Positions 2,775 to 42,500 of a DNA stretch of 64,000 nt are shown here, in pieces. Below the pieces are notes generated by a model that was not told where the DNA came from, did not search any database, and worked only from the letters and a program-made list of their open reading frames with translations. The DNA is from Rhizophagus irregularis (lineage: Eukaryota), in the NCBI RefSeq assembly GCF_026210795.1, contig NC_089433.1, positions 3,844,001 to 3,908,000 of the forward strand. The letters are read 5' to 3'. The position numbers were made by a program, and so were the translations under genes. Numbering within the stretch: the first letter of the stretch is position 1; every line of letters starts with the position of its first letter.

Positions 2775-4316
2775 TTATCTCTTTAAGATTTGAAATATCT
2801 CATATTCTTCAATAATAAATTCACCATCAGTATCTCTTATTCTTTTTTCATAATGACATTTTTTATAAACCATCTCGGTATAATCTGTAGATTCATTAGG
2901 AGCCCACAAAATAATATCGCCAAAATTAGGTCCATTATTAGACTAACAATAGAAACCTTGATTCGTTTCTCCCATGTTACTAATAATTGCGTTTTTAATA
3001 TCTTTATTTTTAAAAGAAAAGATAAAACTTCCATAACCACCAGAAGATTCCCATTTTAAAGGGTTGTATCCACCAATAATTTCTTCTGCTCCTTTTACTT
3101 TAATTAAAGTAATAGTATTAGGTTTACCATCACATAATTCATGAAATTTTTTTGAAGTAAATCCATCTCGACTTCCACTTAATAATAATTGAAATTTGTA
3201 TGGCAAATATAATTCTCTTAAATGATCAAATTTACTATTATAATTAATAATATATATTTTATCAATCCATTTCGAAATAGCCGAAATAATATTTAAATTA
3301 ACGATTTTCGAATCAATAATACTTTTAAACTTAATATTTCTAGGATACAAAATATTATCGGTTGGTTCACTATCAGAATCTAAATGAGAATTTAATAAAT
3401 TTTCATAAATTTCGCGTTTTAAGAGCTTTTTATAAGGACGAACTTTTTGTAAAAATTCTTTGGATGATAAACTAAAAAATCTAATCCAAGGTAAACAATT
3501 TTGTAAAATATTTTCCATTGTTTTAAAATCATCATCTGACCAGTCATTAGGATCTGGAAGAAGTGTAGGATTTTGTGCGAGACCCCATTTTAATACATGT
3601 TCCCAAACCTCAATTTCTTTCATTTGTAAATCATCTCTTTTAATGAGTTGGACTAAAGATTTTTTAGGGAGTGAAGTAAAATCAAGCGATTTAAATACTT
3701 TCTCTGGAGATTTTGCCATAAGATCTGTACAGAATTGTTGAATTTCCAATAAAGAATTATATTGAAAACTTGTTCGATGAATGAATTCAAAGTGTTGCTC
3801 CATCCATTCGGATTTATTTTCAATCAAATATTTTTGTAAATAATCAACTAATTCCTGAAGAAATAGGTCATCTGCTGCCAATAAAATTTGAAAAATTTCT
3901 GAAGGATCTTGCACATTTAATGAAAGAATACCACCATAAATATACCTATATTGCAAATTGCAAATTAATTATTTCGATAAATATTAGAGATTATTATAAA
4001 TTTATACGCATTATATTCACATTATATTTATACTACTGTATGGTCATAAACTTACCTACCTTAAAATAATTTGGAAAACCTCTGGTGATATATTCGGAAA
4101 CTTTATGTTAATTAAAACATTGTCCTTATTCTGGTTGTTATTAGAGGCCAAAGTACGTCGTAAGTATGGAGAACGGTAACACAAGATACTCTTGTGTGAA
4201 CGAAATATTTTCACATTAGGATCTTTGCCAACTTCAATTGTAATATCGTAATATTCATTATCTTCCAATAATTCAATATAGTTTTGACTTAATTTTGAAA
4301 GAAATTGTGTTGACAT
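2775..4316 (-). pseudogene. BTB/POZ-BACK-TLDc protein, copy 1, with premature stop in TLDc
   Basis: Exons 4316-4060 and 3945-2775, GT-AG intron. In-frame TAG at 2943-2945 (GFYC*SNNGPNF vs ALYCGPNNGPDF in copy 2); homology continues to ...EEYEIFQILKR* at 2775. Confidence 0.8.
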
Positions 4317-5284
4317 ATTATAAAAAAACCGAAATTAATATGGTAAAAAAAAAAATTGTGTAAATTTATAAAGTTTACATTTACTTATTTTAGTAATGTA
4401 ATCATTTCACATTTGGTTAAATTAAATATCAATGCAAATTCTTTCCAAATAAAAATTATTATGCCATCAGAAACAATTTTTATCACATGAATAAATTTTC
4501 AATATTTCAATATTTTTGATTCTAATCTCACGGATGAATATATGTTAAATATGTAGTTTTTAACAAGTAATAAAAGTTGATATTATTAAATCGTATAATA
4601 ATTTAAAATAATTTTTTTTAATGATAAAAATCTTTACAGAAATGTAGCGGTTATATAACCTACTACTGACTACTGAGAAATCATTTTAATCATTTTTAGT
4701 TAGCTTACAAGATTATATCTAGTAATGTTATTATTATAAAAATTTTGTTCATGAAAGGTAATGTACTAAATAAAAAAAAAAGCTAAATAATTAGTTTTCA
4801 TTTATCTATTTGTAAAAATGTCGTACACATTTCCCTATAATCCATAATATTCTGAGAAACATTATTCAATATTGGTAATTTTTATTATGGCATTAAAACA
4901 AAAGTGTCGTGATACCTATTTGTAACATATTGGTAATTAAAATTGTTATTTGATAATTGATACTTTTCTCGGATTTTTTTATTTCTAAAATTAAAAAATT
5001 AAATCTCTTTCCCATTTTTTTTATGCTAAGCTGATCTGCAAATATGGGTTCTAGTAAGATAACAATCATAACATAGTGTAACATAACGAGTTTAGTTACA
5101 TCATGTCGTACCTCTTTTTAAAAGACATTTTATTTTTCGTAGAGTATCAGTGCAAGCATCCAGATTGTGGACAAAATAAATCTCCCTTTTTTATTTAGGT
5201 ACTTTTGAAGTTTATTTAATCCTTCACAGAAATAAATAAAGTTTTTTATGATTTATAGTCCGAATTCTCTTAACAACTTCTTTA

Positions 5285-5426
5285 CAGAAACTTCAAGATA
5301 GTAGCGATGGCTTAATGCGCAGTAACTGCGTTATAAATACATAGTGACCACATTATGTAATCGTAAAGAAATTACATATATGTAGTTACTGTGCATTAAG
5401 CCATCGCTACGATCTTGAAGTTTCTG
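5285..5426. mobile_element. Tc1/mariner-type MITE (~45-bp TIRs, TA target duplication)
   Basis: Starts CAGAAACTTCAAGATAGTAGCGATGGCTTAATGCGCAGTAACT, ends AGTTACTGTGCATTAAGCCATCGCTACGATCTTGAAGTTTCTG, with TA on both sides. Confidence 0.7.
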
Positions 5427-5924
5427 TAAAGTTACCGGTTCTATTATAGGATCGTAGCAAAAGCTAGTACCAACAGTTAACTAAAAATACTGCATGGAAA
5501 CATACTTACTGTTCCTTTGCACCTTCACCACCATATCCTTACCTTTAATTTATAGTAGTATTTAAATATAAAATACTAGCGCTAGTATTTGATTCATATA
5601 TCTTTTCTATAGATATTTCTATAAAGATCATTTTAATTTTAATAAAAAAAATGTGTAAATACTTAAATTCGAGTCAATTAGTTGGATATACAGTATTTGT
5701 TAGATAAAATCGTTCACGGAAGGAAATTCATACAAAATTTAAAATCATTCATAGTTTCATAAAAAAAGTATACCAATAATTTGAAAAATTCGGTTGAGTT
5801 ATTTGAAATCATGAAAAAAGTTAATTTTTTTGATGCGAGCTTCAAGGTAATTCTATAGTAATTTCAATTTCTTTTTATTTATAATACTAAAATAATAAAT
5901 AATATAAACATAAAAATACAACAA

Positions 5925-7461
5925 TTATCTCTTTAAGATTTGAAATACTTCATAGTCATCCATAGTAAAATTACCTTCAGTATCTCTTATACTTTTTTCA
6001 TGATGACGCTTTTTACAGACTAATTTAGTATAAACATTGGTTCCATCAGGAGTATATAAAATAATATCGGCAAAATCAGGTCCATTGTTAGGTCCACAAT
6101 AAAGTGCTTCATTCGTTTTTTCGATATTACTAATAATTGCACTTTTAATATCTTTATTTTTAAAAGAAAATATAAAACTATCTTTAGTTACAACCCAACC
6201 ACCAGAAGATTCCCATTTTAGAGGGTTATATCCACCAATAATTTCTTCTGCTCCTTTTACTTTGATAAAAGTAACAGTATAAGGTTTACCATCACATAAT
6301 TGATGAAATTTTTTAGGAGTAAATCCATCTCGACTTCCTCTTAATAATAATTGAAATTTGTATGGTAAATATAATTCTCTTAAATAAGAAAAGTTACAAT
6401 TAACATCAACTTTATTGATCCATCTTGAAATAATCGAAGCCATATTCAAATCAATAATTTTTGAATCAATAATACCATCAAATCTAATATTTCTAGGAAG
6501 TAAAATATTATCAATTGGTTTAATATCAGGATCTAAGTGAGAATTTAATAAATTTTCATAAACTTGGCGTCTTAAGAGCTTTTTATAAGGATGAACTTTT
6601 TGTAAAAATTCTTTGGATGATAAACTAAAAAATCTAATCCAAGGTAAACAATGTTGTAAAGTATTTTCCATTGTTTTAAAATCATCATCTGACCAGTCAT
6701 TAGGATCCGGAAGGAGTGTGGGATTTTTTGTAAGTCCCCATTTTAATACATGCTCCCAAACCTCTGATTCTTTCATTTGTAAATCATCTCTTTTAATGAG
6801 TTGAACTAAGGATTTATCGGAAAGAGAAGTGAAATCAAGCGATTTAAACACTTTCTCCGGTGATTTTGCCATAAAATCTGTACAGAATTGTTGAATTTCT
6901 AATAAAGAATTGTATTGAAAACTTGTTCGATGAATAAATTCAAAATGTTGTTCCATCCATTTAGATTTATTTTCAATCAAATATTTTTGTAAATAATCAA
7001 TTAATTCTTGAAGAAATAGTTCATCTGCTGCCAATAAAATTTGAAAAATTTCTGAAGCATCTTGTCCACTCAATGAGAGAATACCACCATAAATATACCT
7101 GTATCATAAAAATTAATTATTTCGATAAATATTAAAGATCATTATACGTATTATATTCATGTTATATTTAGTCATTATTGTACTGTATATAGTTACAAAC
7201 TTACCTTAAAATAATTTGGAAAACCTCTGGTGATATATTCGGAAACTTAATGTTAGTTAAAACATTGTCCTTACTCTGGTTTTTACTAGAGGCCAAACTA
7301 CGTCGTAAGCACGGAGAACGGTAACACAAAATAATCTTGTGTGAACGAAATATTTTCACATTAGGATCTTTACCAACTTCAATTGTAATGTCATAATATT
7401 CACTATCATCCAATAATTCAATATAGTTTTGACTTAATTTAGAAAAAAATTGAGTAGACAT
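5925..7461 (-). CDS. BTB/POZ-BACK-TLDc protein, copy 2 (intact, 476 aa)
   Basis: join(7461-7205, 7098-5925). BTB: YYDITIEVG..KIFRSHKIILCYRS / YIYGG. BACK-like: LIKRDDLQMKE.EVW..VLKWG. TLDc: LLLRGSRDGF...IIGGYNP..W...SFIFSF...GPDF...DYEVFQI. Confidence 0.9.
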
Positions 7462-8929
7462 ATTAATATTTATAATAATTTAAAGTACGAATTTAATATG
7501 GTTATAAAAAAAAAATTGTGTAATTTATAAAGTTTATTTTTCATTCAAATTTAGTTAAATTAAAGATCAACATAAATTCTTTCCAAATAAAACCATTACG
7601 TCATCAGAAAATAATTTTTTAATTCTTTTCATTTATTTTTGCATAAAACGCTGATCAAATCATTTAGTATCCAAAGAACTGGATCTATTCTCAGTGTGTA
7701 TTATCCCGGAGCTCATTGTCCTGAATAACTTTTTAGTAATTAATACAATTAATATCTATAAGATAGTGATTCCGATTTTAACAAAATTATAATAAAGCAA
7801 AAAACGTTGAAATAGTTTTAACTTGTTAAAATGAATCAAATGTAGCGATAGCGAGTCTGAATATAAACTTGATGACTAACTGGATACCATAAATTAAAAA
7901 TTACTCGTAGTCATGTGATATATAGTTTTCATACATCCACCCTAGCGTCGCCTCCAAAAAATGGTAGCCGGATTCATTTTTCCGGGTTACATATAATATT
8001 ATGGATGTGACAAATAATAGGCAATAACTATGGGGTTTTGGAATATCAGGGTTTTTTTCCCAAAGGGAAAACCCATAGTATTCCGCCCCATGAAATTACT
8101 AAGATATACTCAGGAACGTGTGATTTATGATCACTTTAAACTTTGTAATAATATTAAAGTAGAAGTCATTAATGTAATTATATATATAATAAAGAACAGG
8201 TAATTTAATTTTATATAATAAAGTTTATTACCATGAAAAACAGTCTAAAAATATCTCGGGAAAAAATATTTACTGTACATATATCATTAGGGAAATTACG
8301 ATGCTCTATATCATAAGTCACACTTAGTGCGACAGGGTATAATTAGAGTTTTTACATATAAAAAAAATTCGAAGTCCACAGAATAATAACAGCTAGGATG
8401 TGACTAACTCTAGTCCTAACCCTAATTCTAAAGAACCGACAAAATGAATCAGGTTACCATTTTTTGGAGGCGGCGCTAGGTTCGTCGTTGTCATACTGAG
8501 TATATAATACAAATATGTCCCCAATATCTTTAGTTTTTATTTTTTTTTTTAGGTCTCTTTGTGCTTCTCTTTTTAGTCTTCTTTTGATCTTCTTTTTCTT
8601 TCTAGGTCTTTTCTTTACTTCGGTCTTCACTTTTTTTCTGACTGCATTCTCCGTCATTTCTTCTCCTCTCTTTTCTTTAAGTCTTCTCTTTATTAGGTCC
8701 TCTTTCAGTTCCTTTTTAGCAACCCTCCAATTATTTCAATTATTTGAACATTTGAACTTATGATAATAATTATAATATTAATTAGTAATGGTTGATTATT
8801 GAAAAATTTATTGTTATTAGGTCTTCTTTTTGGTTCCCTTTTTTTACAATCTTCTTTTAGATACTTAGGTTGGGAGTGTGTAAGGATGGGTGGTGCGTGT
8901 ATGATTTATTATGTATTCCCTTGTCCTCT

Positions 8930-9255
8930 CGTTTTCCTTCTTTCCTTTGCCTTTCCCTTATTCCCTCGCTCTTTCCGTTCTCTCCTTCCTTTCCTTTTCC
9001 CTAATTCTCTCGCTTTTTCCCTTTTCCTTTTCTTATTTATTCACTCTTTTCATTTCCCCTCTCTTTACCTTTCCTCTCTTATCCCCTCATTCTTTCCTTT
9101 CCCTTTCCCTTGTTCTTTCGCTCATTTTCCTTTCCCTCTCTTATTCCATTCTTTCCTTTTCCTTCTCTTTCCTATCTTTTACTTTCCTCTTTACCTTCCC
9201 TTCCCTTTCCTTACTCTTTCCCTTTCCCTCTCTCACTTTTCCTTCCCTCTTCCCC
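8930..9255. repeat. Polypyrimidine low-complexity tract (TTCCCT/TTTCC-like)
   Basis: Almost entirely C/T on the + strand; produces spurious F/L/P/S-rich ORFs. Confidence 0.75.
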
Positions 9256-9927
9256 TGATCAATATTGCTGCACCTCAACGTGATGATCAGGTGACAACAA
9301 GTTTTTTAAAAGACTTGGCTAAGTCAGAAACAAATGTAACGGTTTGTCTATTTTTAACTATAAATTAAACTAAAATTTTTATTTGATTTCTCATTTATAT
9401 GATTATTCAATTTTAATTTTTGCAAATGTATTAATAATATGATCCAAAGATTATTACAGTAATTAGTAAATCTAAAATTTATTGAGATTAAATTCAAATA
9501 AGACAAATGCGTATTGTATACAAAAATTATTAATTAAACATAACTTAATTATAGCTTTTACAATTGCAAAATTAAAATAATAATGTTAAAACCAATTTTA
9601 ATCAGTTAAGTCGGCATTACTACTATAAAAGAATAATCACATTAGATTTATTTTAAAAAATCCCTGCCCATAAACATCTTTTTTTGGATTCAGAGAATCG
9701 TTGAAGCAAATTTGAGAAAATATTTCGTAGAAATGTAATGATTGTATAATCTACAGTAGCACTAGACTAGTATTTTAACTTTTAATATTTACATTATTCG
9801 CAATCAAGTCTTAACATTATTATTGTAAAACTTTATTCATCAAAAAGATCATACACAAAATAAAATAAATAAAATAAAATAAAATAATTTGCTCGTTTAT
9901 CTATTTAACTAACATAAAAATACCGTA

Positions 9928-11417
9928 CTATCTCTTTATAACCTGAAATACTTCATAATCTTCTATTTGAAATTTACCTTCAGCTCTTATCATTTTTTCA
10001 TAATGTACCCATCCACAGTAACTTGTATCATAATTTGTTGATTCATTAGAAGCACGTATGATAATATCTCTGCCAAAAAATGGACCATCGGCTCGACAAT
10101 AACAAACTGCAAATTCTGCTGTGTCTCGTACGTTACTAAAAATTGCATCTTTAATATTTTTATTTTTAAAAGAAAAAATAAAACTATCTTTAGTTTTACC
10201 CTTATTATCAGAAGTTTCCCAAGTTATAGGGTTGTATCCACCAATAATCTCTTCTGATCCTTTTACTTTGATAAAAGTAACAGTATTAGGTATACCATTA
10301 CATAATTGATGAAATTTTTTTGGAGTAAATCCATCTCGACTTCCTCTTAATAATAATTCAAATTTGTATGGTAAATATAATTCTCTTAAATGATCAAATT
10401 TTCCATTAATAATGATAACTGTTTTATCAATCCATCTTAAAACAGCTGAAACAAGAACTAGATTAACAATTTCTGAATCAATAATTCTCTCAATTTTAAT
10501 ACTTCTAGGAAGTAAAATATTGTCGGCTGGTTCAGTATCAGGATCCACATGAGAATTTAATAAATCTTCATAAACTTGGTGGTTTAAGAGCCTTTTATAA
10601 GGATGAACTTTTTGTAAAAATTCTTTGGATGATAAACTAAAAAATCTAATCCAAGGTAAACAATGTTGTAAGGTATTTTTCATTGTTTTAAAATCAGCAT
10701 CTGATAAGTCATTAAGATCAAATGTAGGATTTTGTGCAAGACCCCATTTTAATACATGATCCCAGACCTCAATCTCTTTCATTTGCAAATCATCTCTTTT
10801 AATGAGTTGAACTAAAGATTTTTCAGGAAGTAAAGTGAAATCAAGTGATTTAAATACTTTCTCTGGAGATTTTGCCGTTAAATCTCTGCAAAATTGTCGA
10901 ATTTCCGATAAAGAATCGTATTGAAAACTTGTTCGATGAATGAATTCAAAATGTTGTTCCATCCATTCAGATTCATTTTCAACCAAGTATTTTTGTAAAT
11001 AACCAATTAATTCTTGAAGATCTAGTTCATCTGCTGCCAATAAAATTTGAAAAATTTGGGAAGCATTTTGTTCATTCAATGAAAGAATACCACCATAAAT
11101 ATACCTATATTAAAATATTAATTATCTCAATAAATATTAGAGGTATTAATTTCATGTTATACTTATTGTATATTAAGTTTACCTTAAAATAATTTGAAAA
11201 ACTTTTGGTGATATATTCGGTAACTTGATATTGGTTAAAACATTGTCTTTATTCTGCTTCTTATTAGAATCCAAAGCTCGTTGTAAGTATAGAGAACGAG
11301 AAAACAAAATACTCTATTAGAATCTTTGCCAACTTCAACTGTAATATCGTAATATTCATTATTATCCAATAATTCAATATAATTTTGACTTAGTGTTGAA
11401 AGAAATTGTGTCGACAT
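9928..11417 (-). pseudogene. BTB/POZ-BACK-TLDc protein, copy 3, exon-1 frameshift
   Basis: Exons 11417-11183 and 11104-9928. Relative to copy 1, a 22-nt deletion near 11315 removes VKIFRSH and shifts the frame; exon 2 is fully open. Confidence 0.8.
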
Positions 11418-13449
11418 ATTATAAAAAAATCGAAATTAATATGGTAAAAAAAAAAAATTGTGTAAATTTATAAGTTTTTCTCTTACTTATTTTAGTAATG
11501 CAATCAATACATATTTGGTTAAATTAAAGATCAATGTAAATTCTTTCCAAATAAAAATTATTCCGTCATCAGAAAAATCAAATGCAACTTTATCACGTGA
11601 ATGATTTGCAACTTTTTTTTTTGAAATTTTAATATCTCAACAGATGGAATCTAAAAAAAATTGTCTGACGTTTGTCTCCGCATAAATAATTTGAATTGTG
11701 TAACTTGAAATCCCATGCCATAATTATAATTAAATCCCGTGACATGCCTCATTTATGGTGCAAAACTATTTGATCGTGTGGGTTAATGAAAAATTACCTT
11801 AATCGGATTTTTTTTTTTTTGATTATTAATTTTTAATTTTTTTTTGTAAAATTTTTCTCACTCATTTCCCGTTTATGTTTAATTTTTTTTTCCCAAACTG
11901 AAGTTTTTTTATTATTACTATTAAATAATTTAAATAATCCTATTGTTTCTGTCTTTTCAGACCGATTTTTTTTATATTATTTTTTTCGATCTTTTTTTTT
12001 AGACCGTATTGTTATTTTTCTTAAAAATATTTTTTTTTCACTTTTTTTGTACTTTTTTTTCAGAATTTTTTTCGGTACTTATTTTTTTTCGGATTCCTTT
12101 TTTTCGGTATTTCCCTTTTTTAATCCGATTTCTTTCTTTTATTTTCTTTTCTCCCCAAATTTTTTTGATTTTTTTTTCTTTTTCTTTCAATTTTTTTTAT
12201 TATTAACGTTAAATAAAGAAATAAAATATTATATTAAATATATTTACAAAATTATTATTTTTTTAATGTAACGTAGGAAAATTGACCGACGTTGATAAAA
12301 AAGATTATTAAGATATTTTCAATTAAATTGAATACTGGATAAATAGTTTGATTTTAAATTCATAAAATCAAAAAAAAAATTGATATTTTTACAATATTTT
12401 ATAATTAATTAATTGAAGAAACTGTTAAGTTAATAATAAATTATTATAACCAAATCCATATCCGAAATTCTCTAAATAATCACCAAGATTTTTGAATAAA
12501 GATTTTAAATTCAAATGGTTTAGTTAAATTAATAATTTATCGAATAAAATAAATATCAAAAGAATAATAATAAATGAAATGAACAGATTCTAATACATTT
12601 AATTGTTCAAATATTTTTTTTCTAGGTTGGTTATAAGTTTTAAGATTGACGTAATATAAATAATAAGAAATAATTATAAAATTTATAATTAATTAATAAA
12701 AATATTTGTAATATTGTTATAATATTAAAGTTTTTTTCGAAAATACTTCTAAAAAAAATAATCAATTTTTATTGATAATTATTTTTTCACAATTCCTTAA
12801 TTAATCCGAATTTCATCATTTTATACTCAAACGTCAAATCATAATATAAATAGCTAGTACATTATTGTAAATATAATTTAATACACATTATTTTATTATT
12901 TTCTGTTAACTAATTATTATCCATATTAAATTCCTAATTATAAACAAAACACTACTGTAACCATCTTTAATTTACTTAGTATTACATTATGATACTAAAA
13001 ATTTTTCTATTTAAACAAACTCATTGGTCCCGATGCGAAGCAACGGTTACTGTTATTTCTTTTCTGAGTTTATTGTTAAAGTCGCCTAAACTTTTTCTTT
13101 TCAAATAGAGAGCTGATCAAAATCAGTCATTATCCTGAAAACAATGTTATGTAAGAGACTAACGATAAATGCGTTAATAATTGTACGAGATTTGTAAAAA
13201 CATCGGCTTAATGATAAGAATTTTTTCGTAGTTGAGCAAGTTTGGAGAAATGTAATGGTTATATAACCTACAGAAGTTTCAGTATACTTTAATTTTTTTT
13301 TAAATAAACTTACGAAATTAGAGAAATTATTTTTCGCAATTTAGTAACATTATTATAGTAAAATTTATTCGTGAAAAGGTGATGCACCAAATAAAAAACA
13401 ATTCAATAATTTACTCATTTATCTTATTATCTAACACAAAAATACCGTA

Positions 13450-14964
13450 CTATCTCTTTATAATCTGAAATACTTCATAATCTTCTATTTGAAATTTATT
13501 TCCAGTATCTCTTATCATTTTTTCATAATGCAACTTTCCACAGTAACTTGTATCATAATTTGTAGATTCATTAGAAGCACGTATGATAATATCTCTACCA
13601 AAAAATGGACCATCGGCTCGACAATAACAAACTGCAAAATCAGCACCTGCATCTCGTACGTTACTAAAAATTGCATCTTTAATATTTTTATTTTTAAAAG
13701 AAAAAATAAAACTATCTTTAGTTTTACCCTTACAATAATCAATGGATTTCCATATTATAGGGTTGTATCCACCAATAATCTCTTCTGTTTCCTTTACTTT
13801 AATAAAAGTAACAGTATTAGGTTTACCATCACATAATTCATGAAATTTTTTTGGAGTAAATCCATCTCGACTTCCTCTTAATAATAATTCAAATTTGTAT
13901 GGTAAATATAATTCTCTTAAATGATCAAATTTTCCATTAATAATAATAATCGTTTTATTAATCCATCTTGAAACAGAAGAAACAAGAACTAAATCAACAA
14001 ATTTTGAATCAATAATTCTCTCAACTTTAATATTTCTAGGAGGTAAAATATTATCAGTTGGTTCAATATCAGGATCCATATGAGAATTTAATATATCTTC
14101 ATAGAGTTGATTATTTAAAAGCTTTTCATATGGACGAACTTTTAAGAATTCTTTGGATGATAAACTAAAAAATCTAATCCAAGGTAAACAATGTTCTAAG
14201 GTATTTTTCATTTTTTTGAAATCATCATCAGTCCAAGTTTTGGGATCTGGAATTAGGGTTTGGTTTTTTGCAAGTCCCCATTTTAATACGTTCTCCCAAA
14301 CTTCAACTTCTTTCATTTGTAAATCGTCTCTTTTAATAAGTGATATTAAAGATTTTTCAGAAAGTGAAGTAAAATTAAATGATTCAAGTATTTTTTCGGG
14401 AGATTGAGCCATTAATTTTGTACAAAATTCTTGAAGGTCTAATAAATTATTAGATGTTGAACTAATTTGTTGAGTAAATCCAAAATTTTGTATTATCCAC
14501 TCTGACTTATTTTCAATTAAAAATTTTTGTAAATAATTAACTAGTTCTTGAAGATGAAGTTCATCTGCGGCGGCCAAAATTTTAAGAAAATCTGAAGTGT
14601 CATGCTCATTCAACGAAAGAATACCACCATAAATATATCTATATTACAAAAATTTAATAAATATTAGAAATAATATATTATCCACCATAATTCATATTAA
14701 ATTTACTTACTCTATAATAATTTGAAATATTTCTGATGAAATATTTGGTAATTTAATATGAGTTAATACGTTATCGTTGTTCTTTTTATTAGAAGCTAAA
14801 ATTCGTCGTAAATATGGAGAACGGTAACACAAAATATTCATATGAGCACGAAATATTTTTACGTTAGGATCCTCACCAACTTCAATTGTAATATCATAAT
14901 ATTCATCGTCCTTCAATAATTCAATATAATTTTGACTTAATTTCGAAAAAAATTGAGTAGTCAT
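13450..14964 (-). CDS. BTB/POZ-BACK-TLDc protein, copy 4 (intact, 480 aa)
   Basis: join(14964-14711, 14638-13450); same motifs and same intron position as copy 2. Confidence 0.9.
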
Positions 14965-19961: not shown

Positions 19962-22900
19962 CTAAACTGTTGCTAAATTTTTTAATTCTTTTTTTTCTTG
20001 ATCTAATTCTAATTTCAATTCATTCAAATTTTTTCTCAATGAATTTATATCTTCTGCCATCATATTAGAATTTAATTGAATTTTGATTCCTTCCTGAGAA
20101 TTAGTAGCAAATTTAAAAATTTTGTAATTATCAAGATTAAAAGAATTCAACTTAAGAATATTTTCAATTATGAGGCTATTTTCCAACTCTTTATTTTTCT
20201 GAACAATTTTCTTTAAGGAATAATAATTTTTATTCAACTCTAACAATCCATCATTATATTTTACAAGAATATTTTGAAATTCTTTAGTGTATTTATCAGT
20301 CAATTTAGAGATTTTCATATCTCCAACAGAACCAATAGTATTTCTTTCCTTATTAATAGAACTTTCTAGATGATTACAGCAATTTTGTAGTTTTTCAATA
20401 GCTTCTTCTCGTAAAGTTAGGAAATTATCCTTAACTTTCAGAAAATCATTGGTTTGATTGAGAACCTGTTTTTTTCTATTGGCATTATAAGAAGCTGATG
20501 TTTTTGATAATTCTTGTTGGAGTTCATTCAACTCCTTTTGTTTAGCATCTTTTTCTTTGTGGATTTCCTTAGTATTTTTTCCACTAGTTAATTTATTTAA
20601 TAATTCCTCTTCAATTTCACTTAATTCTTTTCTTTTATCTTGTAGCTTTTTAATACGCTCTTGATCAAGGTTAATTAGTCTTTGTTCTAATTCATTTACT
20701 TTATCTTGTTTAATCTGTAAAGCTTGAATTAATTGCATTTTGATTTGTTCTTCAATGAACAATTTTTGTTCCAATTGATCAATTTCTTTTTCTAACTTGA
20801 CTTTCAATTTTATAGTAAGCTTTTGATCCTGTGAAAGACCACTCACCATATTTTGCAACCTGATTTTTTCTTGTTCTATTTGTTCATAATTAACTTGAAA
20901 CTGATTTAATCTATTTTCCAATTGCTCTTTTTGTTCAATTAAGCTTTCTTTGTGAGATTTTAATTCTTGAATAATAGCTTCTGTTTGAGCTAATTTTTCT
21001 TGCAATTTAGTTATTTCTCGCTTTAACTGGCTGATTTGATCTTGAACTTGCTGGTTAGTTAGTTTATTTTGTTCCAACTGTTCAGTTAAATTGGTTAAAT
21101 TGCCAGCTAAGTTTTGCTTTTCATTTTGCAGATCAATAATTTGGGTTTGTAAAATATTTTCTTTTTCTGCAAATTCTTTAATTTGTTCAGCTAAGTTAAG
21201 CCTCAGATTTTGATTATTTTGTTCAAATTTAAAATTCCTTTGTTGTGAATCAAAGAAATCATTTTCTAACTTAATATTTTCTTCTTCTATTTGAATTAAT
21301 TGATTTTTAAATTGAGAATTTCTTTGTTGTAAATTAACTAACTCATTTTGAGAACTTTGATAATAAGTTTCAGCAATCTTTTCTAATTTAAGATTTTCTT
21401 CTTCTGTTTGAATTAATTGATTTTTAAATTGATTTTGCTGAGATTTTGATTCTTGAATAATGGTTTCTGTTCGGACCAATTTATCTTGCAAATTATTTTT
21501 TTCTTGATTTAACTGACTGATTTGTTTTAACTGTTCAGTCAACTTACTATCTAAAACTTGCTTTTCATTTTGCAGATTTGCAATTTGGGTATTTTGTAGA
21601 GTTGAGTTTTGCTGTAAATTAACTAATTCCATTTGAATATTTTGTAATTCATTTTGAGAACTTTGATATTTTTGTTTTAATTTAAGATATCCTTGTAAAC
21701 CTTCTAGAATTCCATTTAATTCTTCACTAGTAAAATCAAGTAAATGACTTGTATAGCATGCTTTTGGATGAGATTTTACAATAAGGTTATTATGTTTAAT
21801 TGGTGCATTTATAAATTCCATAATATTGCTTTTTAATTCTTCATTAATATCTTCAATTTCCTTATTATAAGGAAGAAAAATCCAATTTTTAATAATATTT
21901 AAAACTTCTTTAGAAGATGGCCTTTTTAATGGATTTTCATCCCAGCATTTTTTCATTAAATCTATATAGCATTGCGGAGTATTTTCAATAATTTCAGGAC
22001 GTTCACCTTTACAAATACTTAAAGCAAGTTGAAGATCATGTGCTTTATCATTAAATGGTAGAATTTCAGATGCAAATTCCCACATAATTATAGAAAAACT
22101 ATATATATCACTAGCTTGAGTATAAGGTTGACCTCTTAAAATTTCAGGTGCTATAAATGGCAAAACTCCATAGATATTATTTTCTTTTAAAAAAGATTTT
22201 GCAAGTTGATATAATCCTAAGTAATCACTAATGAAAATTCCATATATATTTTCTCCATACTTGTTACATAAAATATTACCATTATGAAAGTTATAATGAA
22301 TAAGATCTTTTTTATGAATATCATTAAGACCTCTAATAATTTGATATAAACAAAATAATTTTTGTTCCCAATTTTTTGTTATTTCTGTTAAACATCTTTT
22401 TAAACTGCCCTTATTTGTATACTCCATTAATAATACATAATTCAAAGTATCTGGATCTTTTGTAAATCCATATATTCTAATAATTTTATATGAATTTTCA
22501 ATAATTTTCCACTACAAATAATAATATTTAGTTAATTAGTATAGATAAATTATAATATTTTAAAAAAAATAATACTTAATCATACTTCATTTAAAAATTC
22601 ATTTAAATTTTCATCTGAATTATTAAGATAATCAAAATATTTAAGAATTACTTCAGTATTTTTATATGTAGCTTTATATAAAGTACCAAATCCTCCTTTA
22701 TCAAAATATTCAATATTTTCAAATTTATCATAAGGAATCCATTTTAATTGATTTTTAGAAATAAATTGATTAACAATTTTACTTCCACTAGTACCAAATC
22801 TTTAAATATAAAAATGAAATTATATTAAAAATTAAAATTTAAATAAAATTTACAATTATAAATATTAAACAATATTAATTATACTTACTCTAAATAAAAT

Positions 22901-25900
22901 TATAAGATTTTAATATAATAAATAATTAATTAATTAGATTATAAATAAATAGTACAGTATATAATAACTTATAACTTACCAACTAAAAGATTTAATTATT
23001 ATGAGTAAATAATATATAATTATAATAAACTAAATATAAAAAATATAGGATTATTATAATTAAAAAATGCAATACTTACAGGCTAAAATATTTTGGGTGA
23101 TTTTTTAAATAATTTAATTAGTTTAAATTATATGTAAATATTATATAAATATAATAAATTACTTACATTCATAAATATCTGAATAATTTTTTAAATAAAG
23201 AATTTAGTTAGTTTAAATTATATGTAAATATTATATAAATATAATAGAATTAAATAAATAACTTATAACTTACCAACTAAAAGAAATTATAGAATAATTT
23301 TTTAAATAAAGAATTTAGTTAGTTTAAATTATATGTAAATATTATATAAATATAATAGAATTAAATAAATAACATACTCCCTATATTATTAAATAAATAA
23401 TTTTTTTAAATAAAGAATTTAGTTAGTTTAAATTATATGTAAATATTATATAAATATAATAAATTACTTACGAACTAAAATATTTGAAATAAAGAATTTA
23501 GTTGGTTTAAATTATATGCAAATATTATATAAATATAATAAATTACTTACGTTCTAAATATTTGAAATAAAGAATTTAGTTAGTTTAAATTATATGTAAA
23601 TATTATATAAATATAAAATAAATTACTTACGTTCTAAAATATTTGAATAATTTTTAAATAAAGAATTTAGTTAGTTTAAATTATATGTAAATATTATATA
23701 AATATAATAGAATTAAATAAATAACATACTCCCTATATTATTATTATATAAATAATTTTTTAAATAAAGAATTTAGTTAGTTTAAATTAAATGTAAATAT
23801 TATATAAATATAATAAATTACTTACGAACTAAAATATTTGAATAATTTTTTAAATAAAGAATTTAGTTAGTTTAAATTATATAAATATAATAGAATTAAA
23901 TAAATAACTTATAACTTACCAACTAAAAGAAATTATAGAATAATTTTTTAAATAAAGAATTTAGTTAGTTTAAATTATATGTAAATATTATATAAATATA
24001 ATAAATTACTTACGTTCTAAAATATTTGAATAATTTTTTAAATAAAGAATTTAGTTAGTTTAAATTATTTGTAAATATTATATAAATATAATAGAATTAA
24101 ATAAATAACATACTCTCTATATTATTAAATAAATAATTTTTCAAATAAAGAATTTAGTTAGTTTAAATTATATGTAAATATTATATAAATATAATAAATT
24201 ACTTACGTTCTAAAATATTTGAATCATTTTTTAAATAAAGAATTTAGTTAGTTTAAATTATATGTAAATATTATATAAATATAATAAATTACTTACGTTC
24301 TAAAATATTTGAATCATTTTTTAAATAAAGAATTTAGTTAGTTTAAATTATATGTAAATATTATATAAATATAATAAATTACTTACGTTCTAAAATATTT
24401 GAATAATTTTTTAAATAAAGAATTTAGTTAGTTTAAATTATATGTAAATAATATTACATAAATATAATAAATTACTTACGTTCTAAAATATTTGAATAAT
24501 TTTTTAAATAAAGAATTTAGTTAGTTTAAATTATATATATAAATATAATAAATTACTTACGTTCTAAAATATTTGAATAATTTTTTAAATAAAGAATTTA
24601 GTTAGTTTAAATTATATGTAAATATTATATAAATATAATAAATTACTTACGTTCTAAAATATTTGAATAATTTTTTAAATAAAGAATTTAGTTAGTTTAA
24701 ATTATTTGTAAATATTATATAAATATAATAGAATTAAATAAATAACATACTCTCTATATTATTAAATAAATAATTTTTCAAATAAAGAATTTAGTTAGTT
24801 TAAATTATATGTAAATATTATATAAATATAATAAATTACTTACGTTCTAAAATATTTGAATCATTTTTTAAATAAAGAATTTAGTTAGTTTAAATTATAT
24901 GTAAATATTATATAAATATAATAAATTACTTACGTTCTAAAATATTTGAATAATTTTTTAAATAAAGAATTTAGTTAGTTTAAATTATATGTAAATATTA
25001 TATAAATATAATAGAATTAAATAAATAACATACTCCCTATATTATTATTAAATAAATAATTTTTTAAATAAAGAATTTAGTTAGTTTAAATTATATGTAA
25101 AATATTATATAAATATAATAGAATTAAATAAATAACATACTCCCTATATTATTAAATAAATAATTTTTTTAAATAAAGAATTTAGTTAGTTTAAATTATA
25201 TGTAAATATTATATAAATATAATAAATTACTTACGTTCTAAAATATTTGAATAATTTTTTAAATAAAGAATTTAGTTAATTTAAATTATATGTAAATATT
25301 ATATAAATATAAAATAAATTACTTACGTTCTAAAATATTTGAATAATTTTTAAATAAAAAATTTAGTTAGTTTAAATTATATGTAAATATTATATAAATA
25401 TAATAGAATTAAATAAATAACATACTCCCTATATTATTAAATAAATAATTTTTTAAATAAAGAATTTAGTTAGTTTAAATTATATGTAAATATAATATAT
25501 TAAACAAATAACTTACACCCTGTAGTATTATTAATTAATAATAATTATAAAGTAAAGTAATTATAATCAATTAGATAAAATATTATAATTGTATATAAAA
25601 ATTAAGTATATACAGTAACTTACAATCTAATTATTTAAATAAATAATATTATTAGTTTAAATTATAAATACTCTTAAATTAATATAAAATTAAATACTTA
25701 CTTTCTATAATATTAGTAATTATTAAAGAATTATATCAATAGAAAATTTAGTTATTTAAAATATCATGTAAAATACAATAAAAAAAAAATAGCTATTAAC
25801 TTACTAACTATAATAATATTAATAATAAAATAAATTATTTGGTTATATAAAATAATAGAAGTAAGTAATTTAATTATCATTCCGATTATAAGATAACCTA

Positions 25901-26046
25901 TTACTTACGAGCTAATATACGAGCTAATATAGTAAAATAATTTTTAGAAATAGTTTAAAAAATTTAAATTATATGTTTATAATTTACAAGCTAATTTTCT
26001 TACCTTCATCTTCTTTATCTTTCTCAATTTTTGAAACTAGTTTCAT
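19962..26046 (-). CDS. Tyrosine-kinase-like (pseudo)kinase with microexon-encoded N-terminal segment and long C-terminal coiled coil (predicted 970 aa)
   Basis: Exon 26046-26004 (MKLVSKIEKDKEDE+G), 33 microexons (25911-22889), exon 22799-22586 (FGTSG..WIPYDKF..KGGFGTLYKA..VILK), exon 22511-19962 (IYGFTKDP..MEY..IHYNFHNGNIL..PFIAPE..DIYSF..CW..RP, then Q/E/K/N/L heptads). The kinase exons are secure; the microexon chain is predicted. Confidence 0.8.
23170..25500 (-). repeat. Tandem array of ~80-107-bp units, each one intron plus one 3-nt microexon
   Basis: Minus-strand unit: GTAAGT or GTATGT...TTTAAACTAACTAAATTCTTTATTT...TAG|NNN|GT; about 24 near-identical copies. Confidence 0.9.
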
Positions 26047-26311: not shown

Positions 26312-27421
26312 TAGTGCTTCGACCCGGATGAAAACCGTCATCCGGATTACACAAAAAAAAAATCCAGATTATATCCGGGTCGATCCGGATTTTAAATCCG
26401 GATCAGATAATCCGGATAGAAACCGGAAACCGGATTGGATTTTTTTTAATTGCGAGCTACGGAGATGCACAATAGCTCATTAGAATCGTCTCGTTGAGAC
26501 GGATCGAATGGCGCTAATTTCATCCTTATACAATCACTGGATGCCGAAATATTCAACAAAACATCAAAAATCGGCATTTTATATATTGCAAATTACGATA
26601 CTGCGCCATTTTATGTTTGTCGAATATCTCGGCAACCAGTGATCGTATAAAGATGCACAATAGCTCATTCGAATAGTTGCATCAAGACAAATCTAATGAG
26701 TTTTAGATCATCTTTCTACGTCCACTGGATGTCGAGATACTCAATAAAATGTCAAAATCTGCATTTTTCATTTCGCGATACTGTGCCATTTTACGGTTTT
26801 CTGAATATCTCAGTATAGAGTGATTGTAGAAAGATGAACTTAGTACCATTCGATTTGTTGCAACGAGACGATTCTAATGAGATATTATGCATCTCTGTAC
26901 GACCACTAGATGCCGAGATATTTAGCAAAATGTAAATGGCGCAGTATCACAAAAATGAGAAGTGCCGATGTTTGATGTTTTGTTGAATATCTCGACATCC
27001 AGTGGTCATAGAAAGATGATCTGAAGCTCATTAGATTCGTCTTGATGTAACTATTCGGATGAGCTATTGTACATCTCTATATGATAACTGGTTGCCGAGA
27101 TATTCGGCAAAACGTGAAATGGCGCAGTATCGTAAAATAAAAAATGCCGATTTTGACATTTGGTTGAATATCTCGGCATCCAGTGATTGTGTAAGGATGA
27201 AATTAGCGCCATTTGACCCGTCTCAATGAGACGATTTGAATGAGCTTTTATGCATCTCTGTAATCTGCATTTTTAAAAAAATCCAATCCGGATTCCGGTT
27301 TCTATCCGGGTTATGAGATACGGATTCACAATTTGGATCGATCCGGATATAATCCGGATATCCGAAAAAAAAAAAAAATTCGGATCAATCCGGATTGATC
27401 CGGATACGGGTCGAAGCACAA
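26312..27421. mobile_element. Non-autonomous hAT-type element with a long internal palindrome
   Basis: 8-bp TSD TTAGAGCG (26304-26311, 27422-27429); TIR TAGTGCTTCGACCCG / CGGGTCGAAGCACAA; many subterminal ATCCGGAT motifs; ~26410-27310 is an imperfect inverted repeat. Confidence 0.9.
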
Positions 27422-29400: not shown

Positions 29401-29881
29401 TCATATATTTTTGAAATATCTTACTTGTCGAGTTTTGGTCGTATGCGACATTTTTCTTTTGGACATTTTTCTTTTTTCTTTCTGATCGTTATCTTTATGA
29501 TTTCTTGGTGTTGCGACTGTTGCGTGTTGATGATTACCATTATCTGAAATTCTACTATTGTTTTTTTCTTTTTCTATATCTTTTTTTCGATTTCTTATTT
29601 CAATATCTTCTAATAACTTGCCTATTTGACATTTTATTGATCCACTCCCCAGTCGAAATATTTTCATCTCTATTTTCATTATCTTTATTATTTATTTTAA
29701 TTTCAATTTGTCGAGGACTTATTTTTGGATTAATATAAATGTGTGTACCAGTCCCTTTCTCAATGGGTTTTAGATTACGTCCTTTACGACCAATCAATTT
29801 ACCAATTTCAACATGGTCGGAAATTTCAATAATGGTCAAAACAGTTGAATATCTGATGGAATTTTGCATTTTTGTTTCCAT
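29401..29881 (-). pseudogene. KH-domain protein, frameshifted copy
   Basis: IGKLIGRKGRNLKPIEKGTG (KH GxxG loop); 5-nt deletion (GCAAT) near 29633 relative to the + strand copy. Confidence 0.8.
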
Positions 29882-30299
29882 TTTTATGAAGAATTTAAAG
29901 ATGATATATTGTTGTATTTTTTATTATTATTAAAAATAAAGTAGGAAAAAATATGTATGATTTTTTTTTTTGATGAATTTTTTTGAAAAAGCAAACTCAA
30001 AAAGGGGAAGTATTTATATAATTTAGCAGTTTTGCAAATTTATAAACAAAAACACATCGTAAAAAACATTTTATTAATATAAAACCAATAAAATTTTTAT
30101 ATTGTTATTATTTTTAACAAAACCATTTTTTTTTAATTAACAAAGACAATTCATGAAAAAAAAATCTATTTTTAAATCATCTTTTATTATAAAAGGTAAT
30201 TGTTCTCTTTTCACAAAAAAGTGATAGCTTGTCTGGATCACCGGGTCTTGCGCCACAAATTGTGTTCACAACAATTTAAAGGACGATAGATGATTAGAT

Positions 30300-31196: not shown

Positions 31197-32644
31197 GACG
31201 ATAGATGATTAGATGATGGTACAATATACGCTCACATCAACATTGGTGCATTTGGTGGTAATAACTCTCAGATAGGTAAAACAAAACTATAAAATTCATA
31301 CAACTTTCATACATTTAATTATGAAAGAATTTTGTAGTATTTATTATTATTTATTTTTATTATATAGATAGATACTATTATAAGGAATTTTTTAGAATGA
31401 TGATATGATACCTAATTTTATTTATCGAAATTAATTAGAACATATATTGTGTATTACCTATTAAGAATTTACAGTAGTTTTTATAATATTAAAAATCTAT
31501 CAGATTATGTCTTTGTTATCTAATTATTATGAAGAGCGTCACTATTTCATTATCTAGTACAAAAAAATTGACTAACAAGTAATAGCGAAATAATTATAAT
31601 ACGTAAAATACGAATCAATTTTAGCTTGTTAAATTTCTATGAATAAAAATATAAATTATTTAGAAATAATAATTATTGTAACTAAAAATCCAGAATTAGA
31701 AAAATAATAAATTCCTTTTTTTAAAAAAAAATTACTAAGGGCCATGCATCGCCGAGATGGAGAACCGAGATTGAACTTAAAATTAATGCAGTTAATTTCT
31801 AATTTAAAAATAAAATTAATGAAAGGTAGATAATTTTATAAGATATTTATGAAAGAATAGAAAAAAAAAGATAAGAATAAATGTCTTTTTGAAAGTAACG
31901 AAAATAAATTACAAGACTAATTAATTCTTGTAAACAAATATTTATAATAATTGAACATATTGAACACTTCAATTATTAATTTTTTATAGTAGTCGATAGT
32001 TAATAATGCAGTATTATTAATTTTTTATATAATAGTCGATAGTCAATAACGCAGACGTAGTACGAGATAGGGAGAATTTCTTTTTTTTTTTTGATAATTG
32101 ATAACAAAAGCGTTTGTTAATGACACAATTTGTGGCGCAAGACATGATGATCCGGACAAAAGTATCCAGCTATCCCTTTTTTGTGATAGTCTTGACCATC
32201 AGTTATATTATCGCACGAAAATCTTTATAACAATGACGGTTTTTTTTTCATGCTTAAAAGTGAATGATTTACCTTTTATAATAAAAACATAAACATGTTT
32301 TAAAAATAGTTATTGAGAAAATCATCGTTTTTTCATGATTCGTCATCAAAACCATTGTCTTTGTTAATTAAAAAAAATGGCTTTGTTAAAGATAAAAATA
32401 AATAAAAAACTTTTGTTGGTTTTATGTTAATGGAATATGTTTTTGTTGCAATTTGCGATGTATTTTTTTTTTGCTTGTAATTTGCAATAATTGCTAAATT
32501 ATAAATACTCTCCATTTTTTTTAGTTCTCATTTTTCAAAAAAAAAAAAAAACATTAAAAAAATCATATATTTCTCTTCCTCTTTTTTTTTTTTAAAAAAA
32601 AAAAAAATACATAATAATATATCATCTTTAAATTCTTCATAAAT

Positions 32645-33130
32645 ATGGAAAAGCAAATGCAAGATTCCATCAGATACTCAACTGTTTTGACCATTATTGA
32701 AATTTCCGACCATGTTGAAATTGGTAAATTGATTGGTCGTAATGGACGTAACCTAAAACCCATTGAGAAAGGGACTGGTACCCACATTTACATTAATACA
32801 AAAAAAAGTCCTCAACAAATTGAAATTAAAATAAATAATAAAGATAATGAAGATAGAGATGAAAATATTTCGACTGGGGAGAGGATCAATAAAGCAATAT
32901 GTCAAATAGACAAGTTATTAGAAGATATTGAAATAAGAAATCGAAGAAAAGATATAGAAAAAGAGAAAAACAATAGTAGAATTTCAGATAATGGTAATCA
33001 TCAACACGCAACAGTCGCAACACCAAGAAATCATAAAGATAACGATCAGAAGGAAAAAAGAAAAAGGTCCAAAAGAAAAATGCCGAATACGACCAAAACA
33101 CGACAAGTAAGATATTTCAAAAATATATAA
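32645..33130 (+). CDS. Single KH-domain protein with basic C-terminal tail (161 aa)
   Basis: IEISDHVEIGKLIGRNGRNLKPIEKGTGTHIYI (KH motif); open ATG-to-stop frame; K/R-rich tail. Confidence 0.75.
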   Translation: MEKQMQDSIRYSTVLTIIEISDHVEIGKLIGRNGRNLKPIEKGTGTHIYINTKKSPQQIEIKINNKDNEDRDENISTGERINKAICQIDKLLEDIEIRNRRKDIEKEKNNSRISDNGNHQHATVATPRNHKDNDQKEKRKRSKRKMPNTTKTRQVRYFKNI

Positions 33131-39019: not shown

Positions 39020-39535
39020 CTCACTTTTTTCGCTCACTTTTCGTTTACTTTTTCACTCACTTCTCCACTCGCTTCTCCACTCACTTCATCCACTTTTTCA
39101 CTCGCTTCTCCACTCACTTCATCTACTTTTTCACTCGCTTCTCCACTCACTTCATCCACTTTTTCACTCGCTTTTCCACTCACTTCATCCACTTTTTCAC
39201 TCGCTTCTTCACTCGCTTCTCCACTGAGTCCACTCACTTCTTCACTCACTTTTTCGCTCACTTTTTCGCTAACTTCTTCATTCACTTTTTCGCTCGCTTC
39301 CTCGCTAACTTCTTCATTCACTTTTTCGCTCGCTTCCTCGCTAACTTCTTCACTCACTTTTTCGATCAATTCTTCGTTAACTTTTTCACTCACTTTTTCG
39401 ATCACTTCTTCGCTAACTTCTTCACTCGCTTTTTCACTTAATTCTTCGCTAACTTCTCCACTCACTTTTTCGTTTACTTCTTCGCTCACTTCTTCGTTAA
39501 CCTCTTTACTCACTTTTTCGCTCAATTCTTCGCTT
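39020..39535 (-). repeat. Coding minisatellite (12-nt/4-aa units SEEV/SEKV/SGEA) at the TSC1 C-terminus
   Basis: Repeated CACTCACTT/CGCTTCT units; translation VSEEVSEKVNEEASEK... Confidence 0.85.
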
Positions 39536-42500
39536 ATTTTATTTTCGATCTTAGGTATCTTAGGTGGAGTGAGTGATTCAATTTTAGCCAGTAATTCTAT
39601 AATACGTGACTAATAACAAAAAAAAAAATACGAATATTTATGTTAAGTAAATTATGTAAAAAATATGTATGAAAAAATCACACACACTAAATATATACCT
39701 GTAATTCTTCGTTATGCTTTTTAACTTCATCAAATTGAGTTTCCAACTTTTTGAATTCTTTATCCCTCTTATCTCTTTCAAATGACCATATCATCATCTA
39801 AAATTATTATCCGATTAATAGAATTAATTATGAATTAAAGAATATTTCATATTTGAAAGGAAAATCATTATACTTGTTTTTCCAACGCTTTTTCAGGTCT
39901 TTCTATGTTTTTTGTAGAATTCTCCAATTGAATTTTTAGATCATCAATAACAAGAGATTGCGAACTAATAAATAAGACAAACAATCAATATATATCATCC
40001 CAATTTATGTGTCTCCACTGCTTCTCTATTTTATAAACTTGTAGAAATTCACGAAAAAAATTCCTTACCTAATGGTGGAACTTAATTGTTGAATCTCATG
40101 TTCTCCAGATTTCAACATCATTTCCATTTTATGCCAATTCCCTACTAAAGTCTCCATTAATCTTTTTTGTTCTTGAAATTTTATCGTATCAGCTTCCCTG
40201 TAATAAAAAAAATAAATAAATGAATAAATATGTTATTTCTAATTATTTTGGATCGTTAATATCGTTAATTAAAAAAAAAAAATATTAAAATATTATGAAT
40301 TAATCCCTTCTTTATTTACCATAACATAAGTTGTTTTGTCAATTGATCAATGGTGTGTTCGTACTCTGTTAATTTTTGAAGTTGGGGCTCATGTAATTTG
40401 ATTTGATTCTCAAGTGAGAAACATCTGAAGATAAAGTATTATATAGTTATCATATAATTTTCGTTGCCATTACAAGTAAATACAATACATTATTTACTTA
40501 CTTCGCACTTAACACCTCGATTTGTTTATTTTGCGCGTCTATTACAAGCTAAAAAAAAAAGATGAAATAGTAAAATCATTAATTTAAATCATTCAAAAAC
40601 CCGTAAATATATTTTCAAATACGTTAAAGATTCTTCTTACCTTAGATTCGCTTAATTCTTGTTCTAATTTATCTAAAACACTCTTCCATTCTTTTTTCTC
40701 GTTTTTATATTGTTTCAATTTATTATTTAATTCATTCTCCCATTGAACGTGTTTCTTTTTTGTATTAGCAGTTTCAGTTTTTTGTCTATCAAACGCGGCT
40801 TGAGTTTGTGATAATTGTGATTTTAATATTTTACATGTATTATATAAATTTTGTCTTTCAGCTTCAACTGTACTATCTAATATATGATCACGATGTAATC
40901 TACCAATATGTTGAAGATGTTGTTGTTTAAGATAAAGTTCAAAATTTAATTCATTCCTCAAAAGCATTATTTCACGTTGTAAATATGCCACACTCGCTTG
41001 CGTGTTTGTAGTGTTTGTAGTCGGTGGTGATTCATTTTCAGGTGGCGAAGTAGGATGATTAACAGTTAGAAAATTTGAATATGATATTATCCTGGATGCC
41101 TGAAATAAAATTATTTTTTTTTAAAAATTTTTTTTTAATAATTTTTGTAAAAATAATTTTAATTTTAAGATATAAACTAAAGTAAAATGATATAGACTTA
41201 AGTAAAATCCACTTACCCAAGGATCATCCCCTACAACAATATCAGCACCACTTTTAAGAGCCTGATGAACATCCATAATTTCATGTATAGAAATTGCTTG
41301 TGAAGGACGTCTTGCTTTTTGAGTTTTCTTTTCAATTATTTTAGTATCAGCTTCTTCTAACACTATTTTAGTTAGATTTTCCAATTCATTTGAATTATTT
41401 GAATTAGAAGAAGCATTCTCCATATCATAACTAACGCATTCGGCAACTACATCAGCAGGTTCAAGTTTCATCCATCTTGATGTATCTGAAAGTTCTTTCT
41501 CTGAATCGCTCATTATAAGATTTGGGTGAAGTGTATGAATTCGTAATAATGACTAAAATAAAATTTTTTTTTTAAAAAAAAAAATAATAAAATGGAAAAG
41601 AAATAAAGTTTAAAGTCTTTAATTTATTACCATACTTCTCGCTCTTATAATATCATCATCAAATTTTTCAATTAAAGGAACATTATTCATCTCTTTAATC
41701 CAACCAGAAGGATCTTTTAAAAATTTTACAGTATTACATGGAAACATTCCATACAAAAATGTAAAAAGTTGCTTACAACTTGGTGGACTTGATGGTGCAT
41801 TATCAAAAGTCGAATCTGTAAAAAAAAAAATCAAAAAAAAAAATTTTTTTTTAAAAGATATTAAATAGAAAATAAATATGCATATTTTAAATTAAAGTTT
41901 ACCACATCGATTCCAATCTACAACATTCAACTTTTCTGATGTTTTTTGATCATCATCATCATCGTCGTCGTCGTCATCACTTTCCACAATCTCATCAGGA
42001 AAATCAACGGGTCTCGAAATATGTTTATCCCAACATATAATCCTGCTAAATATAATATACAGTCCAGGAAGATAAGTAGTAACAGATATACATATATGAG
42101 GTAATAACATAATTAAAGTAGTTAGTGAAAGGGAAATCAAAGTTGTGGATGTATCCCGCTATAATTTTTAAATATACAAATAAAAATTATTAAAAATCAA
42201 CTAAAAAAAACACTAAAAATTCAAAAGAACGGTACCTGAAGTGAGGTTAATAAAGAATCAAGAAGTGGAGTCTCTAATATTTGATGAATATGTAAATTCT
42301 GGAAAAAAATAAATAAATAAAGGATTAAAATATAAAAGTAATAAAAAATAAATAAAATAAAATAAAAAATAAAATATAAACCTGTTTTCTTATAAATTCA
42401 CCAAATAATGTTAAGACTTGTAGCCTATAAGTACTTTGAACAAAATATGAATTTAATAAAATAAAAAATTCCTAACATAAAAAAATATATATATATATAT

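Follow-up and report, generated by a model that had tools for sequence, protein, structure and literature searches.

Which reading frame enters a kinase domain when the DNA ahead of it offers isolated codons, each enclosed by splice sites, and finally a single base? This question is raised by a gene on the minus strand of a 64,000-nt stretch of Rhizophagus irregularis DNA (assembly GCF_026210795.1, contig NC_089433.1, positions 3,844,001 to 3,908,000), referred to here as the window; all coordinates are positions within it. The window is A+T-rich, and between the first coding exon of the gene and its kinase exon lies an array of 33 short units of the form AG-x-GT, in a tandemly repeated stretch of about 89% A+T (Table 1). 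Comparison with related loci indicates that these units are likely true spliceosomal micro-exons. The last of them, a single A at 22889, is quite probably an obligatory adaptor that leads a chain in phase 1 into a kinase exon in phase 2, and we hold the splicing model as a whole to be equally probable.

Reading frame through the array

From the exon-1 donor (26003) to the kinase acceptor (22800), a further 33 donors follow, each with an AG just upstream. Together they delimit 34 introns, canonical at donor and acceptor in 34 of 34 cases, and units of 3 nt (31 units), 12 nt (one) and 1 nt (one). The middle of the array is composed of near-identical tandem copies, amplified from three cassette types; the tandem repetition has periods of 90, 283 and 373. 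Within 250 nt upstream, the ATG at 26046 is the sole one to open the phase-1 frame, another (26009) being in phase 0. A copy of the first unit's acceptor and codon lies 12 nt upstream (25909-25926, minus strand), permitting a 15-nt in-frame alternative.

A previous interpretation of this DNA (the sequence-only reading) had exon 1 end in phase 1 and the kinase exon start in phase 2, and these coordinates hold, with an exon 1 of 43 nt. The kinase exon starts at 22799, after AAG, and since one base precedes its first full codon, it requires phase 2. The motif TTTAG-A-GTAAGT, proposed in the same reading to complete a Glu codon, is present as described: acceptor AG, a single A and a donor GTAAGT from 22888, between introns of normal size (90 and 89 nt). 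The junction codon would then be G+A+A. When all parts are joined by script, a frame of 970 codons remains open. Omission of the single A closes it, with a stop at codon 68, and so does direct joining of exon 1 to the kinase exon. Whichever of the 34 introns is retained, a stop follows by codon 54; a larger exon ending at 22889 through intron retention was considered and rejected, as it yields a stop. Skipping of single units gives a stop only for units 6, 32 and 33, and the other 30 of 33 skips remain open. By frame arithmetic, exon 1, the A and the kinase exon are in frame as well, so the A is the sole unit that every isoform would need.

The sequence-only reading further held that use of another acceptor for the kinase exon would count against the 1-nt exon. 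This does not apply to the next two acceptors (exon starts 22787 and 22781), which demand the same phase as 22799, so a different acceptor alone would not speak against the unit. It does apply to the first AG of the kinase exon able to bypass it, a phase-1 acceptor 104 nt inside exon A.

Table 1. Predicted parts of the kinase gene and their positions in the window
Feature	Position	Strand	Remarks
Exon 1, coding part	26004..26046	-	14 codons + 1 nt; phase-1 donor GTAAGA at 26003
Micro-exon array, 33 units, 106 nt in total	22889..25911	-	introns of 75-104 nt between units
12-nt unit	23167..23178	-	new CAG acceptor 9 nt upstream of lost TTAG; frame-neutral, optional
3-nt unit 31	23080..23082	-	
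3-nt unit 32	22980..22982	-	would give first base of junction codon; lone skip leads to stop
1-nt unit (A)	22889..22889	-	putative phase 1 to phase 2 adaptor
Last array intron, 89 nt	22800..22888	-	GTAAGT...AAG; stops in all three frames
Kinase exon A, 214 nt	22586..22799	-	W-I-P-Y segment, Gly-rich loop, Lys strand; in-frame ATG absent
Exon A/exon B intron, 74 nt	22512..22585	-	phase 0
Exon B	19962..22511	-	remaining TKL-type kinase domain and long Q/E/K/L-rich tail; 849 codons + stop

Elsewhere in the window the pattern YAG-N-GTRAGT is found three times on the two strands combined; over the final 180 nt of the array the expectation is about 0.004. In recursive splice sites an AG is immediately followed by GT, with no exon base between them. 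Such zero-length units are absent from the array (0 found), and its units are not recursive splice sites of this kind. Isolated AG-A-GTAAG or AG-AAA-GTATG patterns outside arrays are found at 57682, 19217, 19269 and 60339 (all on the plus strand) and are considered background; around those at 57682 and 60339 no gene context was seen. Within the array, the AGA units at 24751-24753 and 24114-24116 (minus strand) have a second acceptor, GAG, whose use would give a 1-nt exon and a frameshift. An acceptor shift of this type is one route by which the 1-nt adaptor could have originated.

Putative micro-exons in related loci

Relatives of the gene were taken from an alignment of the kinase domain, as the best 80 of 265 confirmed metagenome loci. 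Upstream of the kinase, units are present in 33 of the 80 loci. The sense strand has 101 of them, 86 with a length of 3 nt, and the antisense strand a single one. Stops are avoided in one phase. Read in phase 1, the 57 pairs of adjacent units contain no stop, compared with 4.1 expected on shuffling (P 0.002), and read in phase 2 they contain 11. After removal of two near-copies, 50 pairs still have no phase-1 stop, with 3.5 expected (P 0.007).

Length of the last unit was then compared with the phase of the kinase exon. Excluded from this count were 40 of the 80 loci, which have no exon-A anchor, and 14 anchored loci with no donor within 260 nt; the 27 informative loci are 26 scored by script and one of the unanchored loci (L010) recovered by eye. 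In 18 loci the kinase exon is in phase 1, beginning 35 nt (in one case 38) before the T-S-G codons, and the array ends in a 3-nt unit in all 18, five of which also permit a GAG-based 1-nt reading. An additional unit, with a weak donor, is present in L024, L028 and L048; its length is 3 nt in L028 and L048 and ambiguous in L024. The kinase exon is in phase 2 in eight loci, with a last unit of 1 nt in five and 4 nt in three. In the 1-nt loci the exon begins 7 nt before T-S-G, and the base is A in L005, L006, L009 and L018 and T in L007. In the 4-nt loci (L010, L012 and L061) it begins 4 nt before T-S-G, with the acceptor 3 nt further in, and the sum of unit and exon overhang is 8 nt in both groups (1+7 and 4+4), an exact compensation. 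Last-unit length thus matches the required phase in 26 of the 27 loci; the remaining one, L043, has a 1-nt T unit with mutated donor ATAAGT (L043:170-420) and looks decayed. The earlier proposal that a 1-nt exon supplies the phase shift, together with its suggestion to look for the same exon in paralogous kinase genes, is borne out at the level of DNA by the frame, by the five of eight phase-2 loci that keep the unit, by the compensating 4-nt unit in the other three and by the loci that track the phase.

In a kinase tree of 39 rows, the window, the 1-nt loci and the 4-nt loci form one clade (support 97/94), in which the path from the window to L005, L006 and L007 is near 0.9-1.0 changes per site. 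Since the phase-2 loci are one clade, the covariation represents about two or three events long conserved, not 26 independent tests. TTTAG-N-GTAAGT is aligned in the window and five of six loci, and its core stands out in the DNA alignment. The interior of the last intron in four distant loci has an identity of 0.60-0.77 to the window, and shuffled means are 0.60-0.67; most of these interiors have drifted close to the shuffled level. The 1-nt unit is kept in distant relatives, which indicates its long conservation.

Other relatives differ at this place: in eight of them a Cys-rich (CxxC) exon occupies the position of the array. Neither spliced copies nor copies intronless at the exon A/B joint were found among the 80 loci, and 18 pattern matches in viral contigs included no relatives. 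Locus L018 (1-623) is a close paralogue, 91% in the kinase and with flanks nearly the same; it has a possible 18-nt CAG...GTAAGA exon ending near 229.

The kinase protein

Exon B matches kinases of the same fungus. Its residues 1-260 are 100% identical to the R. irregularis protein model P0002, and the named best matches are proteins of Rhizophagus and Funneliformis. PF00069 (E 1.6e-27) and PF07714 were the only Pfam families found. The nearest solved chains are tyrosine-kinase-like (TKL) kinases, namely CTR1, RIPK4, MLT and RIPK1. An active protein kinase is expected to have an Asp in its catalytic loop (HRD motif). Here the loop position reads H-Y-N, and D-Y-L-G stands in the place of DFG. 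Because the catalytic-loop Asp is replaced by Asn, the protein is predicted to be a TKL-type pseudokinase.

Exon A is 60-83% conserved in 25 of 26 matches. As it has no in-frame ATG in the window, the kinase N-lobe needs an upstream exon. Many protein models begin at an internal Met or read through an intron. Related kinases P0041, P0042 and P0132 have low-complexity, G/M/E/L-rich N-termini that resemble arrays predicted in another phase.

The 12-nt unit

The unit ending at 23167 has TATG in place of the TTAG of its sister units, and a CAG 9 nt upstream of the lost TTAG gives a 12-nt exon (23178-23167). The sequence-only reading saw in this exon a rescue of the broken acceptor and an internal check on the splicing model. 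TATG, CAG and frame neutrality are all present; as a check the unit is weaker, since inclusion and skipping are both in frame and the 12-nt exon is therefore not required.

The unit belongs to the commonest cassette type. CAAATATTT stands before TAG in 15 intact sister units, and CAGATATTT is found only in the unit with the lost AG. Its CAG is the first AG past a branch-like motif, at a distance of 34 nt, compared with 31-49 nt in 25 units. Gain of the CAG and loss of the AG make a single co-occurrence (roughly one sister unit in 16) at the 3' end, where the array has diverged most, and it is suggestive in favour of use of the unit as an exon. We put the presence of the 12-nt exon in the transcript slightly above an even chance. 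Among the related loci no relative bearing on this unit was found. The NCBI model P0002 includes the same 12-mer, in phase 0.

Alternative explanations

Several observations weigh against the splicing model. Phase 0 of the window chain is open too, and phase-0 stops occur in 0 of 86 3-nt units of the related loci. Over the first 34 codons of exon A, a test by codon position (87/57/56) was uninformative, showing no excess in third position. Among the 136 protein models listed (120 + 16), none has the modelled N-terminus of exon 1 plus array. Acceptors in relatives were picked by hand, and several loci offer more than one AG with an open frame. Fisher's P of 6e-7 for the covariation is overstated, the phase-2 loci being one clade. 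Moreover, L018, which lacks an array in the 525 nt upstream, retains the 1-nt unit, and some relatives are broken: L007 by a stop at the start of exon A (440-545), L009 by two damaged units (130-250), and L043.

Such broken relatives lend themselves to a first alternative explanation. It grants micro-exons to the family but takes the window copy for a decaying or untranslated paralogue, whose array was inflated by neutral slippage, whose unit at 23167 is dead and skipped, and whose transcripts would seldom have all 34 introns spliced correctly. The near-identical tandem copies in the array middle, the replaced catalytic Asp and the stop by codon 54 after any single retention agree with decay. 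The frame of 970 codons is nevertheless intact and the splice sites are canonical throughout, and when unit order is shuffled, the phase-1 frame survives in just 3.75% of cases, a mild result since the order is partly fixed by duplication history. On balance, decay of the window copy is unlikely.

A different use of the same units is embodied in P0002. Here the chain would be read in phase 0 from an ATG 6 nt before the first donor and joined to exon B, leaving out both the 1-nt unit and exon A. The model does start with phase-0 units, the 12-mer included, its match to exon B is complete over the residues given above, and the phase is open. The phase-0 chain cannot join exon A, however, and the protein would lose the Gly-rich loop and the Lys strand despite the conservation of that exon; the upstream ATG would have to be bypassed, and neither the conservation of 1-nt and 4-nt units nor the avoidance of phase-1 stops would be explained. 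We consider this reading highly improbable. The same very low probability is given to the view that the array is a non-coding minisatellite or a 5'-untranslated region with chance splice-like words and that the protein starts further down, which suits the A+T-rich tandem repeats, the early exon-A Met used as start by annotators in many relatives and a 1-nt-like pattern at an ordinary exon end (14711), but not the strand-specific, mostly 3-nt units in 33 of 80 loci, their one-phase stop avoidance, the phase covariation or the missing in-frame Met in exon A of the window copy.

Comparison with known systems

The splicing model has precedents for its two halves. Codon-sized micro-exon arrays with alternative splicing are described for the nank (NACHT-ankyrin) genes of Tuber melanosporum (Iotti et al. 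2012, via PMC4986451, PMC10197012 and PMC13449251). Common to both cases are tens of consecutive 3-nt exons (31 of 33 units here, predicted from DNA), an expanded family and a mycorrhizal fungus. The host gene differs, being a TKL-type kinase or pseudokinase with a long tail (kinase families only in Pfam) and not a NACHT-ankyrin NLR, and so does the taxon, Glomeromycotina as opposed to Ascomycota. The kinase array, unlike that of nank, lies between exon 1 and the kinase, runs in phase 1 across codons and ends in an adaptor of 1 or 4 nt.

Spliceosomal exons of 1 nt are described for Arabidopsis APC11 (PMC4674806), plant VPS55 (PMC8831610) and Fusarium CYP621A, the last RNA-supported and leading from phase 1 to phase 2 as the middle base of a codon (PMC12940212). 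The kinase unit, as predicted from DNA, shares with them AG-N-GT between two normal introns, necessity for the frame and conservation in homologues, and with CYP621A also the change from phase 1 to phase 2 and the middle codon position. Whereas the three known exons are RNA-supported and lie between ordinary exons, within conserved motifs, the kinase unit follows 32 other micro-exons; its codon would draw on three exons, of which one has 3 nt and another 1 nt, and the base of the unit may be A or T. The MEG genes of Schistosoma, coding for secreted proteins, have exons of 6-81 bp and introns of 100-5000 bp (PMC10526429). They share with the kinase array a series of tiny exons, with lengths mostly divisible by three, that is associated with sequence variation; the kinase array differs in its 3-nt exons, its introns of 75-104 nt and its place at the head of a kinase domain.

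An expanded tyrosine-kinase-like gene family is known in R. irregularis (PMC4219462, citing Tisserant 2013), and by its kinase domain and nearest matches the window gene resembles this family. Within the family, some relatives have the Cys-rich exon where the window branch has the array, and public models miss or misframe the array. Our literature search, which did not extend to subscription papers (Iotti 2012 and the supplements of the R. irregularis genome papers among them), retrieved no report of micro-exon arrays in kinases of mycorrhizal fungi. The passages considered of a 2022 preprint on the R. irregularis assembly make no mention of micro-exons. Codon-sized exon arrays and 1-nt exons are thus each known separately; here the two would be newly combined, a long array being closed by a conserved 1-nt adaptor of phase in a kinase family of a mycorrhizal fungus.

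Possible mechanism and significance

Introns of 75-104 nt could be recognised singly and removed in sequence, with the growing upstream exon gaining each base or codon in turn. If introns are recognised one at a time, recognition of exons of 1-3 nt would be unnecessary; sequential removal of short introns has been argued for plant micro-exons (PMC8831610). Each 3-nt exon would complete one codon with two bases and open the following codon with its third, and the array would place a variable, K/Q/R-rich peptide of about 35 residues ahead of the predicted pseudokinase. Tandem duplication of intron+codon cassettes would let the array grow and change, lengthening the peptide. Most units could be skipped in frame, the 1-nt unit could not. 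The 12-nt exon may owe its origin to the gain of a CAG that came to be the first AG past the branch-like motif and so left the old AG free to mutate.

By analogy only, the array might encode a variable tag for recognition or interaction, the role suggested for the Tuber nank genes. A broader idea, which we offer tentatively and think rather doubtful, is that arbuscular mycorrhizal fungi possess an unannotated, family-wide device: intron+codon cassettes would be duplicated, mutated and alternatively skipped, giving hypervariable N-termini on TKL kinases and pseudokinases, a fixed 1-nt exon would lock the frame, and the peptides would set self/non-self or partner specificity.

If splicing follows the model, 33 exons together contribute 106 coding bases and a single codon spans three exons, which makes the gene an extreme case for testing how the spliceosome copes with adjoining micro-exons. 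In one branch of the largest family of signalling proteins in mycorrhizal fungi, N-termini would then be missing or misframed in public gene models, and the arrays would give protein variation in these fungi a concrete and testable origin, comparable to the nank arrays of Tuber.

Other features of the window

Upstream of the kinase gene lies a G+C-richer tandem repeat with a period of about 181 (26596-27259). A palindrome-rich CCGGAT stretch is located at 26320-26440, and a similar one near 58030-58270. Four tandem paralogues occupy 2943-14643 on the minus strand (open reading frames 2943-3968, 5925-7103, 9928-11109 and 13450-14643); they presumably resemble BTB/BACK-TLDc genes. Two inverted paralogues of one small protein, which we take to be KH-like, are found at 29600-29920 (minus strand) and 32618-33130 (plus strand). 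An open reading frame of 191 codons at 39034-39609 (minus strand) encodes a low-complexity repeat rich in E, V, S and K.

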